64,000 nt of DNA from Octopus sinensis. Its lineage: Eukaryota. Shown in pieces: positions 14,115 through 51,423 of this stretch. Under the pieces are notes generated by a model. That model did not search any database, was not told the DNA's origin, and saw only the letters and a program-made list of their open reading frames with translations. The translations under genes and the position numbers were made by a program. Numbering within the stretch: position 1 is the first letter of the stretch; each line of letters begins with the position of its first letter. The DNA lies in NCBI RefSeq assembly GCF_006345805.1, contig NC_043010.1, forward strand, positions 26,660,001 to 26,724,000, in the 5' to 3' direction.

Positions 14115-15636
14115 ACTAACCAATATTGTAGCTGTGGCCAGTGACCCGACAGGCTCCTGTGCCAGTGGCACATAAAAAGCACCATCCGAACATGGCCGAT
14201 GCCAGTACCCCATGACTGGCTCTTGTACCAGTGGCATGTAAAAAGCACCCTCCAGACGTGGCTGATGCCAGTACCCCTTGACTGGCTCTTGTTCCAGTGG
14301 CATGTAAAAAGCATCTGCCAGACGTGGCCGAAGCCAGTACCCCTTGACTGGCTCTTGTACCAGTGGCATGTAAAAAGCATCCGCCAGACGTGGCTGATGC
14401 CAGTACCCCTTGACTGGCTCTTGTTCCAGTGACATGTAAAAAACATCAGCCAGACGTGGCCGAAGCCAGTACCCCTTGACTGGCTCTTGTACCAGTGGCA
14501 TGTAAAAAGCATCCGCCAGACGTGGCCGATGCCAGTACCCCTTGACTGGCTCTTGTACCAGTGGCTTGTAAAAAGCACCAGCCAGACGTGGCTGATGCCA
14601 GTACTCCTTGACTGGCTCTTATACCAATGGCATGTAAAAAGCACCAGCCAGACGTGGCCGATGCCAGTACCCCTTGACTGGCTCTTGTTCCAGTGGCAAG
14701 TAGAAAGCATCAGCCAGACGTGGCCTATGCCAGTACCCCTTGACTGGCTCTTGTACCAGTGGCATGTAAAAAGCACCAGCCAGACATGGCCGATGCCAGT
14801 ACCCCTTGACTGGCTCTTGTACCAGTGGCATCTAAAAAGCACCATCCGAACATGGCTGATGCCAGTACCTCTTGACTGGCTCTTGTACCAGTGGCATGTA
14901 AAAAGCACCAGCCAGACGTGGCCAATGCCAGTACCCCTTGACTGGCTCTTGTACCAGTGGCATCTAAAAAGCACCAGCTAGACGTGGCCGATGCCAGTAC
15001 CCCTTGACTGGCTCTTGTACCAGTGACATGTAAAAAGCACCAGCCAGACGTGGCCGATGCCAGTACCCCTTGACTGGCTCTTGTACCAGTGGCATCTAAA
15101 AAGCACCATCCGAACATGGCTGATGCCAGTACCTCTTGACTGGCTCTTGTACCAGTGGCATGTAAAAAGCACCAGCCAGACGTGGCCAATGCCAGTACCC
15201 CTTGACTGGCTCTTGTACCAGTGGCATGTAAAAAGCACCAGCCAGACGTGGCCGATGCCAGTACCCCTGACTGGCTCTTGTACCAGTCGCATGTAAAAAG
15301 CACCAGCCAGACGTGGCCGATGCCAGTACTCCTTGACTGGCTCTTGTACCAGTGGCATGCAAAAAGCACCAGCCAGACGTGGCCAATGCCAGTACTCCTT
15401 GACTGGCTCCTGTGCTAATGGCACATAAAAAGCTCTATCTGAACATGATTCACCCCCTTACTGGCCCCCATGCCAATAGCACATAAAAAGCACCTACTAC
15501 ACTCTCAGAGCATCTAGCTGTAGAAATTATACCAGATCTGATTGGAGCTTGGTGCAGCCTCCTGGCTTTCAAGACCTCAGTCAAACCGTCCAACCCATGC
15601 CAGCATGGAAAGCAGACATTAAACAAGGATGATGAT
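14115..15636 (+). mobile_element. Family C retroposon with massively expanded internal array
   Basis: Same 5' start (ACCAATATTGTAGCT.TGGCCAGTG) and tail as the copy at 43727-44316. Confidence 0.75.
14160..15430. repeat. 66-bp tandem array, about 19 copies
   Basis: Unit CAGTGGCATGTAAAAAGCACCAGCCAGACGTGGCCGATGCCAGTACCCCTTGACTGGCTCTTGTAC; starts at 14361, 14427 and so on. Confidence 0.95.
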
Positions 15637-37284: not shown

Positions 37285-39450
37285 ATGGGTGGATCAGGAT
37301 TACTTGACTGCAAGAGGTGCAAGACCATCCAACTCCAAGGAACAGAGACCATTATAGCAACAAGAGAAAGGACTGAACACAGAGTCAGCATGTTTGTGAG
37401 TCAGATTCTGGAACACTTCTGTGAATGATTTATTGATGCCAATGAGCCAAGAGACCCTTCTCTTAATTAGTCTTATTTAGTGGGTCTTTGTCACTAATTA
37501 GTTGTTGGCTGTAGACAATACTAGACAGGCTGTGTGTGAAGCTGAGAATAAAAAGTTTCCATATTTTTATTACCCAGAACATTTGCATCTATGTATTTAC
37601 ATGTGTACAATGATTATTTAAATACATTATCATAACAGAACAGTAAAGTCTTCACAGCATATAACATTTTAGTTGTATGAAAATCACTCACGTTTATAAA
37701 AAACTAAGAAGTAGAAAAATGAGAACACCTCATCACAAAACTGACCTACATAGTTCTGCATAACACCTGAGGTTGTTCTGTTTGGGAGTTCAATGTCCCA
37801 GCGTTTTATAACATTCAATCAAACTTCTAGAAACTTCAGCTGAACTGTTTGCTGGACAGGAAAACTCACAAAGCTTATTTTCAAGTTTCTTGATTATTAG
37901 ATCACAAACCAGCTGATCTAAATAGTGGAACCATGTTTGTACAGGTGTGTTATTGCCTTTTATAGTAAACACAAATAATTTCTCATGATTGGCCTTAACC
38001 TTTTATGGTAATATAGTTGGGCCATGGTTCTAAACTGGGGATTTGAATAAGATGGTTCAAAACTCAGCAGAAGCTTTACTACAGGAGTTTTCTCACAGTG
38101 AGTTTGTTATAAACTGACAGAAGGTAGGTGTGTAATCAAACTTGATGACTGGCATCCGTGCTAGTGGAGCGCTAAGAGTACCATACAAGTGAGATCGTTG
38201 CCAGAGCAACAAGCTGGTCTCCGTGCCAATGGCACGTTAAAAACACCATTCAAGTGTGATTGTTACCTACATTGCCTTACTAGCACTTGTGCTGGTGGCA
38301 CGCGAAAAAAAACATTCGAGCGAGGTCGTTGCCAGTGCTGCTGGACTGGCTCCTGTGCAGGTGGCACATAAAAAGCACCATTTGAGCGTGGCCGTTGCCA
38401 GTACTGTCTGACTGGCCCTCATGCCGGTGGCATGTAAAAGCACCCACTACACTGTCGGAGTGGTTGGCATTAGGAAGGGCATCTAGCTGTAGAAACTCTG
38501 CCAGATCAGATTGGAGTCTGGTGCTGCCATCTAGTTCACCAGACCGCAGTCAAATTGTCCAATCCGTGCTAGCATGGAAAGCGGACGTTAAATGATGATG
38601 ATGATGATGATGATATATATATACATTCAGCAAAAAGAATTAGTAGTTAGAATACAAAAGCAGGTATAACAAACGTTACATAGACAGTAAATATACCTTT
38701 CTAATAGACAGACTAAAGTACATTACGAATTAATTAATATTTACAGGTGTTGCATATTAGTTATAAAAGCTGTAAATTACTGATGTTCTTTTATTACTAT
38801 TCAGGTATTTTTTCATTGACAGTTGTTGTGCTGTTATTACTTAGCCCTAGGTCATTCTTGATTGAGCAGACCTATAACGCAAAGCTTTTCAGCCATAACC
38901 ATCCCTGCTTTTATTCAAGCTTAGTATATTTCAAACAACATTATCCAAAATAGCCTTCTTTTTTTAACACTTTTTATGACTATATTTCTGTTGAAATGGC
39001 ACTCCATCAGTTATGAGGACAAGGTTTCCAGTCGATCCGATCACTGCAACAGCCTGCTTGTGAAATTAACATGCAAGTGGCTGAGTACCCCATAGACATG
39101 AGTACTCTTAACATTGTTCTCAGGGAGATTCAGTGTAGCACGGAATGTGACAAGGTTGGCTCCCTTTGAATTACAGGTATAGCTCATTTTTGCCAGCTGA
39201 GTGGACTGAAGCAACATGAAATAAAGTACCCTGCTCAAGGACACTAGATGCTGCCTGGAACTGAGCTCACAATCTTATAATCATGAGCCAGACACCCTGA
39301 CCACTAAGTCACATACCTTCAATTCTATTGAAACTGGCTGCCTTTATTGGGATTAATTTTTGAAATAATGAAGGGTTTATTAAACTATTTTGGTTATTTT
39401 TTAACTGGCATTTTGGAAAGAAGGAGAGTTTTTCACTAAGATCACTTTAA

Positions 39451-43726: not shown

Positions 43727-44316
43727 TACCAATATTGTAGCTATGGCCAGTGCCCACTGACTGGCCCCCATGCCATTGTCACATCAAAAGGATCATCCAA
43801 ACATGGCCGATATCAGTATCCCCTGACTGGCACTTGTGCCAGTGACATGTAAAAAGCACCATCTGAACATGGCCGACACAAATACCATCTGAACATGGCT
43901 GATGTCAGTACTCCCTAACTGGCTCTCATGCCGGTGGCATGTAAAATGCACCATCTGAATGTAGCCAATGCCAGTACCCACTGACTGGCTCTCATGCTAG
44001 CGGCATGTGAAAAGCACCATCTGAACATGGCTGATGCACATACCCACTGACTGGCCCCCGTGCCAGTGGCATGTAAAAAGCACCATCCAAACGTGGTTGA
44101 TGCCAAGGTCCACCTGACTGGTTCCCATGCCAGTGGCACGTAAAAAACACCCACTAAACTCATGGAATGATTGGCATTAGGAAGAGCAAGCAGCTATAGA
44201 AACATTGCATGATCAGATTGGAGCCTGGTGCAGCTGCTGTCTTTCCAGACCTCAGTCAAACCGTCCAACCCATACCAGCATGGAAAACGGATTTTAAACG
44301 ATGATGATGATGATGA
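43727..44316 (+). mobile_element. Family C retroposon with about 5 diverged ~66-bp units
   Basis: Same ends as 14115-15636; (GAT)n tail. Confidence 0.75.
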
Positions 44317-46337: not shown

Positions 46338-48884
46338 ACCAGTTGCATACTGGAGGTGGCAGGGGGGGATCTAATCAACTGCTCCCCCACCTCTCCCCAA
46401 AATTTCAGGCCTTGTGCCTATAGTAGAAATTATTGTTGTGATGGTAAAAGTGATGAAAGGTGGTGGTGGGGGGAACCCTGGAACAGTGGATGTCAAAACA
46501 ATGAGGATGATAAATAATTGTTTCAAAGTATAGCACTGACCCAAGTTTTTGACTAGTATTTTCTTTTATTGACCCCTGGCAGAATCGGCCTCAGTAGTAT
46601 TTGAACTCAAAATGTAAAGACTTGGAAAAATTCCATTCTAAGCACTTTGTCCAATGTCTTATCTTTCATCTTTCATTTGTTTCAGTCATTAGACTGTGGC
46701 CATGCTGGGGCATTGCCTATGGGAAATTTTAGTCGAGTGAATTGACACCAGAACTTTTCCCTTTTTTTTTTTGTAAAACCTGGTACTTGTTTTATCAGTT
46801 TCTTTTTGCTGAGCTGCTAAGTTACAGGGACACACATCGGTTGTGAAGCAGTGGTTTGCAACAAATATGCACACACACACACATACACACACGTATATGA
46901 CTGGTTTCTTTCAGTTTCTGTCTTCCAAGACACTTGTCCAAGGTGTCCTGCAATGGAAACATGTGGTTGAGAAGCAAACTTCTTACCACACATCACCTCC
47001 CCATAAATTTTCAAACTATTGGCCTTAGATTTAGAGTGAGACATATTCTCCATTACAAAACACAGTGAGCAGCTCGTTCCCCAGTTCGAATGTGCATCAA
47101 GCATATTCAGACTGATAACAACATTGAAGTTTCACTTACCACTGCTTAGCGCCCCCCCCCCCCTAGCAATTTACTCACCATAATGTTAACATCTCACAGT
47201 CTAGGTAGGTGGCACTGCAAGATGACCTAGGTGTATACACATCATTTATGAACAAATGAAATACATTCATCATCATCATTGTTTAACGTCCATTTTCCAT
47301 TCTGGCATTGGATAACTGGGGTCTGGGAAGCCAGGAGGCTGCACTAGGCTCCAATCTTGATCTGGCAGTGTTTCTACAGCTTGATGCCCTTCCTAATGCC
47401 AATCACTCCGAGAGTGTAGTGGGTGGGTGCTTTTTATGTGCCACTGGCACAGGAGGCCAGAGGTGGCTAGCAACAACCACAATCGGCTGGTGCTTTTTAC
47501 ATGCCACATAGCACTGTCAGTCACCATACAATGACTGGAAAAGCATAAGAGGAATAATCTCTTAATTCAACTCACAATGCCGTCTGCTTATTGTCTGTGA
47601 CCAACGAGGAGGTAATGACTCCAAAATGCTAGCATTTTAAAGTCTAGGTTGATGGTGCTGTGAGCTGACCAAGCAAGATATATTCTCCATGATAAAACAC
47701 AGTGTAGTTTGGTCCCCAATTCAAATGTGCTTCAAGCACATTCACACTGATTAAGATCATTGCAATTAGAGATAAACATTTTTCAACTTTTGTTTTTTTT
47801 TTGCAATGTTTATCACTTCATTCTGATCTGTGGCCTAGTGTGGCCGTGGTGGTGGTGGTGGTGAAGTTACCATTTGTATAGAAATGAAGAACATGAATTG
47901 TGATATCCATTGCTTGCTCTGTTCTTGTGTTTCTAAGTTGCTAAATAACCACATCACTAGTACCTGTCATTCTTTCTTGTCAAATCCAAGACTAATAAAT
48001 TGTTTCTGCCTGGCAATTGTTAGATATTTCAGAGTCGTTCTTGTCTAGCTGTCAAACTGATCTGATACCATGTGTTAAATCTTTGAATGACTATATCACA
48101 AAACAACCATTTGATAACACAATATAAAATATCGCTGTTAAATTAATTTTAACCTTTTGGTCACCAACCCACCCAAGATTGCCTGTGATTCTAGGATACA
48201 AATTTCCTGTTTTAAAGCAATCTGAATTTTAACCTTCCATTAAAATTTCATCCTAATTTATATTCCAAACACCAATTTAATAATGGCAAAGTTGTATTAC
48301 TAAATTCTTCATTATTTTCGAAATTAGCTGCAGCAAGAGCAGTAAATGCTAACAGAAATATGGTAACAAAAGAGTTAAAGTGATCTGAATTAATCCTTTC
48401 CATTGCGGTTTCATTTTAATTTATGTTCCAAACACCAGCTTAACAATTCTTTTTGCTTTGGGCACAAGGCTTGAGATTTTAGGGGATGGCAATAGTTGAA
48501 TAGATTGACCCCCAGTACTCAACTGGTACTTGTTTTATTGACCCCGAAAGGATGAAAAGCAAAATTGGCCTTGGTAGAATTTGAACTCAGAACATAAAAA
48601 TGGACATAATGCTGCTAAGCATTTTGTCCAGTGTTACAACAATTCTTCTGGCTTACTGCCTTACACCAGCTTCATAATGACAAATTTATTATACCAAATT
48701 CTTAATTTTTTCTAAAATTTATTGAAACAGAGAAACAATGTATCATAATAGAAATATGGTAACAAAAGGGTTAAAGTGATCTAAATTAACACCTTCCCTT
48801 AAAATTTCATGTTATGTTCCAAATACAAAGTTATAATACTAAATTCTTCATTTATATATTTTATATACTATACTATACTATACG

Positions 48885-48928
<44 letters not shown>

Positions 48929-48930
<2 letters not shown>

Positions 48931-49627
48931 CAGAAATATTAAATTTCTAAATCTCTCATAGAGATATGTACGGTGGTGGGGCGTTAGAATGGTTGTATAC
49001 TGTCAATCTAACGTGAACATGACAGTAGGGGGTTACACCACCGCTGTTTAGTCCTAGGAAGCATCAACGCTTCCTGCTGGCTTCGACACATTTTTTCCTG
49101 TGTCCTTATATACATTTACGAAGGGGAGACAAACACTCCCAGGGACACAGGAAAAAATGTGTCAATGCCAGCAGGAAGCGTTGATGCTTCCTAGGGCTAA
49201 ACAGTGGTGGTGTAACCCCCTACTGTCACGTTCATGTTAGATTGACAGTATACAACCATTCTATCGCCCCACCACCATACATATCTCTATGAGAGATTTA
49301 GAAATTTAATATTTCTGATTTTGGTAATCAGTGAATAAACTTCACTGAAAATTAGATATATACATTTGCGAATCGGGACAGATATCAACAGCTGGCGGGC
49401 GTCTGCTACTCTAGACCGATGAAGGACTATGATCCTGAAACATGCGTGTCTCTAGATGCAGGCCTGGCTGCTGGGGGTGTTTGTCTCCCCTTTGTAAATG
49501 TATATAAGGACACAGGAAAGAATGGGTCGAAGCCAGCAGGAAGCGTCGATGCTTCCTAGGGCTAAACAGCGGTGGTGTAACCCCCTACTGTCACGTTCAC
49601 ATTAGATTGACAGTATACAACCATTCT
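48929..49627 (+). mobile_element. Retrozyme-like element: 365-bp monomer in partial tandem plus inverted 5' arm
   Basis: GGACACAGG at 49143 and 49508 (period 365). Inverted arms 48929-49105 and 49143-49319. HHR at 49410-49456. Flanked by (TA)n. Confidence 0.8.
49410..49456 (+). ncRNA. Type-I hammerhead ribozyme (CCGATGA core variant)
   Basis: TCTAGA-CCGATGA-AGGA-ctatga-TCCT-GAAA-CATGCGTG-TC-TCTAGA. Confidence 0.75.
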
Positions 49628-49642
49628 ATATATATATATATA

Positions 49643-50113
49643 CTAGCAGTATCGCCCGGCGTTGCTCGGGTTTGTTTCGACCCGCTGGAATTGGAATTTT
49701 TGAAAAGTAAAAATTTTGCATTATGTAGCTTATTCACTTGTGAACATTTTTCTGGTTGAAATACACCGAAAAGTGGCGACACAGCAGTGAAAAAATCGTA
49801 AAATACATGGATTTTCATAGAAAAAAGCACCTTTTTGATGTAAATAATTTTTGGTGTTAACATGGTCCGATTTGAATTTTATCTTGTATGGAAGGAAGAG
49901 CGACCCTTCTTCTATCATACTCTCAATTATGGTCAACTTGCGCCACAGGGTCTCAGAGGAGATAGTGTTAGTTGAAGGCTACCAAACCTGGCGCACACAG
50001 ACAACTTCAGCTTTATATTGAGAGAGATAACACACACACACACATGTATGGATGTATGTATGTATATATGTACATCTGTTCACTTCTTGCCATATTTTTA
50101 TCCTTCACTTCCT

Positions 50114-50144
<31 letters not shown>

Positions 50145-50768
50145 GACACACAGACACACACACAGACACACACACACATGCACGCACGCACACACACACA
50201 CACCTTCTTAGCTTACAATTTCTTTCTTTCAACAATTGACAACTGAAGTATGCTTGCAAATTAATACTACGAAAACTTAGCGACAGAAAGTAAATTAAAA
50301 ACCAATCGTAAAATATTGAGTTTTCTCGAATTTTTGCTTAATTGGGGATCAAATTGAAAGAAATTTCAATGCCATGACCCAATGGAATGTACCTTGAAAA
50401 ATCATAGGTAAATTCCATTTGAAGAAATTGTGAGGAGTAAATCGTTATGTATTTATTTGTTTCTGTTTCCTGTGTATTTTTTTTGAGTAGTGGTTTAAGG
50501 TACACTTGCAAAGAGAAAGTAGGAGAAAGTGTGGTAATAGAAGGAGTGAAGCAGTTGATATGAGTGAGGCAAATCGTAAAATATTTAGTTTTCTCGAATT
50601 TTTGCTTAATTGGGGGTCAAATTGAAAAAAATTGATATGCCATGACCCAATTGAATGTACTTCGAAAAATCATAGGTAAATTCCAATTGAAAAAATTCTA
50701 TATTGTACAATTGTATTAAAAACAAACTATGTCAGAGGCAGAGAAAATCTGCCTTTTATCATAAGAGA
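49643..50768 (-). mobile_element. Non-autonomous Helitron
   Basis: Minus-strand 5' TC at 50768 and 3' CTAG at 49643, preceded by a GC hairpin (CCCGGCGTTGCTCGGG on +). A|T insertion site. Internal duplication about 50303-50430 / 50571-50697. Confidence 0.7.
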
Positions 50769-51423
50769 TATATATATTCATATACTAAATTCTTCATTTA
50801 TATAATGACAAAGTTATAATACTAACTTATTCATTTTTTTTTTCAAAACCTATTCAAGTAAAAACAGTGTCTGCTAATAGAAATATGATAGCAAAAGGAT
50901 TAAATTTAAAGTTCCAAAATTGTCATCACATTCCTGTAACCTGATGACTGGTACAGTTCCACGCTAGCCATTGCATGCACAGTCTGAATTGCATTCCCAC
51001 ACACCATTATTTTTCTGCATCTCAGACTCAGGTTTATAAGGACTAATATCACTTAGTTCTTCTTATTTGGCCTCAGGTATAAAACTTATAACCATGCTGA
51101 ACCTTAAGTGTTGCCTTCAAGGTTTTTTAGTCAGTCGAATCATACCAACATTTCCATTACATGTTTTCAATCTAATATTTCTTGTTTTATCAAATGGTTG
51201 AGTTACCAGTTGATATACATGGTACAGCTGTGTACATTGGTATACACAAACACACACACACCTTCAATAACAACAACAACAAAAGCATATTTCATCATAG
51301 CCATCATCCTCGTTATCATCATTTTAATGTCCACTTGCACGAGTCAGACAAAATTTGTTGAGATGGATTTTTTAATAATTGGATGCATTTCCTGTCACCA
51401 ACCTTTACCAGTTTCCTCCTTTA

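Follow-up and report, generated by a model that had tools for sequence, protein, structure and literature searches.

Non-LTR retrozymes of animals, and their proposed link with Penelope-like elements (PLEs), have already been published (PMC7229834; bioRxiv 10.64898/2026.07.22.740005). In the accessible text of these sources, the retrozymes of coral, mussel (350-390 bp) and axolotl are non-coding units of a few hundred bp with one type I hammerhead, found as tandem copies in genomes that also contain PLEs, and circles have been shown for them. PLE insertions are reported to be partial tandems in which a 5' copy is inverted and one end alone carries a tail (PMC8557442). The available account of the anole PLE describes, in vitro, two internal start sites for the reverse transcriptase (RT), cutting of both target strands and an AT preference; there, insertion does not need hammerhead cleavage, and uncut RNA is the main template (PMC11167929). 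Two further systems are relevant here: newt satellite 2, a hammerhead repeat driven by an snRNA-type promoter inside its unit (PMC2220036, accessible text), and Tx1, Keno and Tx1-Mar, which the available part of PMC4494074 presents as target-specific LINEs of the Tx1 clade.

The repeat described here, from Octopus sinensis, is a variant of the known animal retrozymes, to which it adds a probably derived U4C core, the counts given below and an ORF1-only parasite. It shares with them the non-coding unit of a few hundred bp, the single type I hammerhead, the tandem copies and the presence of PLEs in the genome. In contrast with them, the octopus family consists mostly of short, dispersed two-armed insertions rather than long arrays, and carries a U4C core; circles, shown for the known retrozymes, are a proposal for this one.

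A two-armed hammerhead repeat and its dispersed family

The window, i.e. the whole 64-kb stretch of DNA that was analysed, contains one copy of the repeat, with (TA)n adjoining both of its outer ends. The left (TA)n tract (48886..48928), the usual target of the family, is followed by an inverted arm on the minus strand (48929..49142). At 214 bp, this arm is slightly longer than the ~180-210 bp estimated in an earlier sequence-only reading; it comprises unit positions 329-365 and then 1-177, and it terminates at the long fixed 3' end (E177) against (TA)n. The forward arm, on the plus strand, spans 49143-49629 and consists of a full 365-bp unit (49143..49507) plus 122 bp of a second one (positions 1-122; 49508..49629), which terminates at the short fixed 3' end (E122), also against (TA)n. 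The 365-bp period noticed earlier was borne out by the direct repeat 49143-49264/49508-49629, 93% alike. The inverted arm pairs 48929-49105 with 49143-49319 (177 nt) and 48985-49142 with 49471-49628 (158 nt) are each 95% alike.

The window copy belongs to a dispersed, protein-free family of hammerhead repeats, i.e. an animal non-LTR retrozyme. Its unit is devoid of ORFs, lies within the 150-450 bp range of non-coding retrozyme units and harbours a type I hammerhead. We found at least 441 exact matches to the hammerhead pattern in the 2.7-Gb genome, and at least 378 copies, again by exact pattern, in which the 122 end is followed by TA; searching with the unit produced 2560 candidates, and 40 of these were scored. 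The family is multicopy and includes tandem copies with two hammerheads, the dimers L002 and L024. Arms longer than one unit, which had suggested reverse transcription around a circular template in the earlier reading, are frequent across the family, with 4 of 30 in a sample anchored on the ends and 8 of 17 in a sample anchored on the hammerhead.

Two other observations were made in the window. At 1047-1098, a 24-bp tandem duplication accompanies a 33-nt stretch that matches unit positions 149-179 on the minus strand (91%) and is perhaps a tiny relic of a 177 end. Separately, a 66-bp tandem repeat family is found at 14148-15433 (19.5 copies), 38288-38444 and 43884-44151.

The right TA tract of the window copy hosts a Helitron-type element on the minus strand (49643..50768), inserted between A and T, with a 5' TC and a 3' hairpin plus CTAG. 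The earlier identification of a Helitron at this place was correct, as the element is multicopy and has identical ends at unrelated loci; it entered the TA tract later and independently. A 23-bp duplication had been seen to bracket the retrozyme and the Helitron. The exact pair is present on the plus strand (48836..48858, 70 bp from the element end, and 50782..50804), but it is not a family feature: flank repeats of at least 10 nt were found for 4 of 41 two-armed insertions versus 7 of 150 mismatched control pairs. This pair is unique to the window locus and cannot be assigned to the retrozyme insertion; a search for the empty site gave no joint across the insertion among the matches listed, a result that weighs neither way. 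An older AT-rich repeat with degenerate internal copies, locally duplicated (48212-48843 and 50802-50904), hosts both the insertion and the duplication, whose left copy lies inside it.

Hammerhead, U4C core and promoter-like region

The type I hammerhead occupies 49410..49456 on the plus strand, with the layout TCTAGA-CCGATGA-AGGA..TCCT-GAAA-CATGCGTG-TC-TCTAGA. Helix I is formed by TCTAGA/TCTAGA, helix II by AGGA/TCCT, and the short self-complementary helix III by ACATGCGTGT; the core CCGATGA lies at 49416-49422 (U4C), and cleavage is predicted after C49450. It is the sole match to the motif scan in the 64-kb window, which agrees with the earlier count of one; by the criteria of Li et al., a copy with one hammerhead would be classed as a monomer. 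A long predicted stem (49380..49482, plus strand; fold z -2.0 and pairing analysis) extends helix I. Searching Rfam at E<=1 did not report the hammerhead, and the minimum-energy fold lacks its three-way junction; the microRNA matches that Rfam returned in the element were discarded, as they arise from the inverted arms.

We nevertheless take the hammerhead as real because of the motif itself and of paired changes between subfamilies. Across 23 subfamily variants, 90.9% of the cells in the helices are paired, and six of the 17 pairs are altered on both sides. Double-change cells number 31 versus 12.3 in shuffles, with none of 500 shuffles as high and slid controls far lower; this shuffle result should not be read as a probability, the sequences being kin.

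The CCGATGA core had been thought to be a mutation specific to this copy. It is instead family-wide, being present in 87 of 113 aligned cores, with CTGATGA in nine; the CC core is similarly found in 91 of the first 100 genome-wide matches listed. A tree was built from 42 units, each of them from a junction with the ORF1-only LINE described below. It is a ladder of subfamilies in which 28 of 28 CC-type rows fall in one clade (98/97), and end branches are longer for subfamilies with a CT core. The CCGA (U4C) core is thus likely derived from CTGA, which is likely rather than proven because the tree is rooted at its midpoint. U4C is a known natural variant with considerably lower activity in vitro that nonetheless supports viroid infection, according to the accessible part of PMC3088659, the only publication on it that our literature search found.

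Upstream of the hammerhead lies an snRNA-type promoter-like region (49327..49372, plus strand), with ATCAGTGAA at 49327 and ATTTGCGAA at 49364, spaced like similar words upstream of U1 genes; the evidence for it is positional. It precedes a predicted transcription start (49384..49400, plus strand; ATC at 49384), a stretch that the ORF1-only Tx1-like element, absent here, has targeted and duplicated in other copies. The word ATCAGT is found 57-61 nt before the starts of 14 of 14 U2 and 10 of 10 U1 genes, and 57 nt before 49384 in the window. A target duplication of the LINE was called at 24 junctions, and in 14 of them the word precedes it by 53-59 nt. Of 17 LINE copies tried, the 16 shown all have ATCAGT or a one-letter variant of it 58-60 nt ahead of the target. 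A position-free promoter PWM was not significant, as 101 and 162 of 300 shuffles scored as high. We infer from motif position that the unit carries an snRNA-type promoter with a start at about unit position 242. In this it would resemble newt satellite 2; there, however, the promoter has been shown by experiment, whereas in the octopus unit the position of the motifs points to it.

Other hammerhead repeat families of the genome, with TTGAYAA and TTGACGA cores (U3-A8 and U3-G8 types; L074, L076, L047, L181, L209 and L077, L080, L205), have a promoter-like region in common with the 365-bp unit.

Insertion ends, candidate enzymes and template

The family inserts into TA targets with fixed 3' ends, a strict pairing of these ends and free 5' ends. 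Free circular permutation of the copies, as had been envisaged, is contradicted by their 3' ends, which lie at unit position about 122 or about 177, 55 nt apart, each with an AT overlap to the target. A census of 114 distinct clusters comprised 102 complete ones, 55 of them two-armed. The latter combine the 122 and 177 ends in 47 of 55 cases and never the same end twice (0 of 55), the remaining eight having one unassignable end. Among loci taken in genome order by their E122 end (30, of which 29 distinct), the opposite arm terminates at 177 in 21. By eye, duplications of 6-8 nt could be made out at three sites outside microsatellites (L017, L019 and L201); elsewhere the TA targets mask target-site duplications.

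In contrast, the 5' ends of the arms are variable, and the median arm measures 132 nt in the end-anchored sample. For 81 arms, after leaving out four that abut the LINE, three 5' ends fall at the cleavage site versus 2.1 expected, with 53 arms crossing it, and one falls at the predicted start site versus 3.1 expected, with 46 arms crossing. Opposite arms of one insertion differ at 333 of 12139 non-CpG sites (2.7%), and units within one arm at 224 of 7594 (2.9%). Rare alleles are common to opposite arms in 22 of 171 cases versus 45 of 4642 in control pairs, the counted pairs not being independent; gene conversion between adjacent arms could be an alternative source of these common alleles.

Such insertions bear the footprint of PLEs: partial tandems with an inverted, 5'-truncated copy, AT/TA targets, two fixed 3' ends with a tail on one end, and a hammerhead with palindromic helix III, features that the accessible texts of PMC8557442, PMC11167929 and PMC4209133 describe between them for PLEs. 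The octopus unit differs by having no RT/GIY-YIG ORF, by a tail of 55 nt versus 30-40, and in that no matching autonomous element was found. Fixed paired ends are not described in the accessible text of PMC7229834 or bioRxiv 10.64898/2026.07.22.740005. More generally, our incomplete literature search found no publication on retrozymes of cephalopods, strict end pairing, a U4C core fixed in a family or LINEs that target the starts of retrozymes; U4C families or end structures may be present in the supplements of the bioRxiv preprint, PMC4209133 and PMC7229834.

In the loci scanned for ORFs, a sample of the at least 441 copies, no RT ORF is joined to the unit, and no RT plus GIY-YIG ORF typical of an autonomous PLE is present. 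A young, abundant and autonomous RT+GIY-YIG Penelope-like family is found elsewhere in the genome (L085-L114 and L311-L322; 95-98% protein identity), with its own hammerhead (CTGTTGA core) and TA-flanked ends. We take it to be Neptune-like from its motifs; its Pfam matches are below cut-off, and a PDB search made in the hunt for a partner gave no match. Comparison of the unit with this one PLE family revealed no sequence kinship.

As the best overall explanation, we consider it likely that the window copy was pasted into the TA tract by a borrowed Penelope-type reverse transcriptase/endonuclease. Master copies would be transcribed from the internal snRNA-type promoter, starting at about unit position 242. 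The enzyme would cut both target strands and prime each at one of the two internal start sites, 122 and 177; the templates of the two arms may be one RNA or RNAs of one source locus, and the two 5'-truncated cDNAs would be joined head to head. This explanation is supported by the end pairing, which matches the one-end tail of PLEs (PMC8557442) and the start sites of the anole PLE (PMC11167929), as far as the accessible texts go. It is weakened by the failure to find a matching autonomous PLE, by the lower activity of U4C, by the use of uncut template in the anole and by Xenopus retrozyme dimers, eight of nine of which did not cleave according to the available text of bioRxiv 2026.07.22.740005.

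As to the template, we lean towards a 365-nt circle formed by cleavage at two successive hammerheads and ligation, and read for more than one turn. The sequencing runs listed for the unit are not on record as RNA, and their assembled contigs carry no information on strand, ends or circles. Because the promoter is situated immediately beyond the 177 end, it would pass to daughters only if the template continued further than the start of one transcript, as in a circle or a read-through multimer, or after a template jump. The arms that run through the cleavage site without stopping fit a circle, and fit an uncut multimer or template jumping as well. For the lineage to persist, its length has to be restored at some step, for which a circle would be a simple means. 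Speculatively, the U4C core may slow the re-cutting of the circle. A copy competent for circle production would need the promoter and two hammerheads, hence an arm of about 670-720 nt, as in the dimers L002 and L024. With about 485 nt, one promoter and one hammerhead, the window copy is predicted to be a dead end in this respect and likely cannot make a circle.

Somewhat less probable, in our opinion, is that the same enzyme and ends operate on a linear template, either uncut read-through RNA from a master locus arranged in tandem or a single RNA used again through template jumps, with a weak or dispensable hammerhead and no circle. The fixation of the U4C core in the family, the existence of tandem copies with two hammerheads and the preference of the anole PLE for uncut RNA (PMC11167929, accessible text) all speak for it, and the arm statistics fit it equally well. 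However, without a length-restoring step daughters would be no longer than their parents, yet the lineage appears to have persisted through the subfamily ladder, along which double changes have maintained helix pairing. Furthermore, a diverged master array would give systematic differences between first and second units, whereas in 54 pairs we saw no recurring difference between upstream and terminal units outside mainly CpG sites.

The sequence-only reading had named as its alternative a solo pLTR, with fixed ends and an attached PLE ORF. Half of this was found: the 3' ends are indeed fixed, though there are two such sites, the 5' ends vary freely, and no attached PLE ORF turned up. That the unit is a solo pLTR left by heavy 5' truncation of an autonomous PLE appears quite improbable, even if its architecture is identical to that of PLE termini (PMC8557442) and Xenopus retrozymes are sisters of pLTRs (bioRxiv 2026.07.22.740005), both as given in the accessible texts. 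Position 365 of the unit is repeatedly found upstream of position 1, the sampled loci contain no joined RT ORF, and the sole sequence recurrently joined to the unit in the 30 best loci is the ORF1-only LINE.

LINEs at the predicted start site and significance of the family

In other copies, though not in the window copy, a 1.7-kb element is inserted at unit position about 242-258; it was found in five of about 26 insertions of the hammerhead-anchored sample. Its ORF codes for a protein of 440-460 aa with one zinc knuckle and no RT, and it is under purifying selection (dN/dS 0.08-0.18 where synonymous sites are unsaturated). The element is flanked by duplications of 9-19 nt that match the local target and are retained after 5' truncation, and its 3' end also turns up at sites that lack a hammerhead and within other families of hammerhead repeats. 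A word search with the protein gave no match, its structure model is poor (pLDDT 39), and a profile search returned 490 relatives without names, 20 of which were scanned and showed at most zinc knuckles or unrelated fused domains. The protein is nevertheless homologous (E 9e-30) to ORF1 of a ~5.5-kb LINE coding for APE and RT, with a like 3' end and target rule. The 1.7-kb element is, on this sequence evidence, a separate LINE derivative, presumably comparable to HAL1 elements.

That this gag-like ORF, present in about a fifth of insertions, might instead be a module of the retrozyme that aids its mobilisation, as in a small Terminon-like element, would accord with its constant site, frequent tandem arrangement, purifying selection and a tree that broadly tracks the subfamily ladder of the unit, but is largely refuted and very unlikely given the persistent target-matching duplications, the occurrences at other sites, the homology with the ORF1 of a LINE found once at a U2 start, and the fact that usually no more than one pass of an insertion carries the ORF element.

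By resemblance, the ORF1-only element and the APE+RT LINE would both belong to the Tx1 clade. Like the Tx1-clade LINEs in the accessible text cited above, they insert at a constant position within another repeat or U2, duplicate their target and pile up in tandem; they differ in that the target is here the predicted start site of hammerhead repeats and in that one partner encodes ORF1 only. The autonomous LINE, about 5.5 kb long, was observed at start sites of hammerhead repeats (L353-L372). Its copy at L355, in a U2 cluster, is inserted precisely where a U2 gene begins; the initial letters of U2 are duplicated, and the copy carries a leader derived from the start of a hammerhead repeat.

Several families of hammerhead repeats carry the ORF1-only element at their predicted start site; at L034, L065-L071, L084, L149 and L153 it is present in up to about six tandem copies with the ORF intact. 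At L145:5478-8230 there are three tandem chimaeras with a period of about 1375 bp, in which the 5' end and ORF1 of the autonomous LINE are fused to the 3' end of the ORF1-only element. The copies at L144 and L153 show many A-to-G changes over about 1 kb, as read from the translation, as if they had been edited prior to reverse transcription.

A bolder, and in our view doubtful, picture would make this lineage at once an snRNA-like gene and a circular parasite. The U4C core would have been fixed to keep the 365-nt circle closed, and a Penelope-type dimer would copy the circle from two fixed starts simultaneously, one per target strand. The promoter would have been colonised by a Tx1-like LINE and its ORF1-only derivative, both homing to snRNA-type starts.

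The family bears on how animal retrozymes spread and on how PLEs make tandem and inverted insertions with a one-sided tail. Because its 365-nt substrate has two defined start sites whose pairing is strict, two-strand priming and the choice between circle and multimer become testable in vitro. Finally, the U4C core, reported to slow cleavage, has been retained through several subfamilies although it lies in a CpG that reverts to the canonical base; the family thus represents a natural test of the need for a fast ribozyme.
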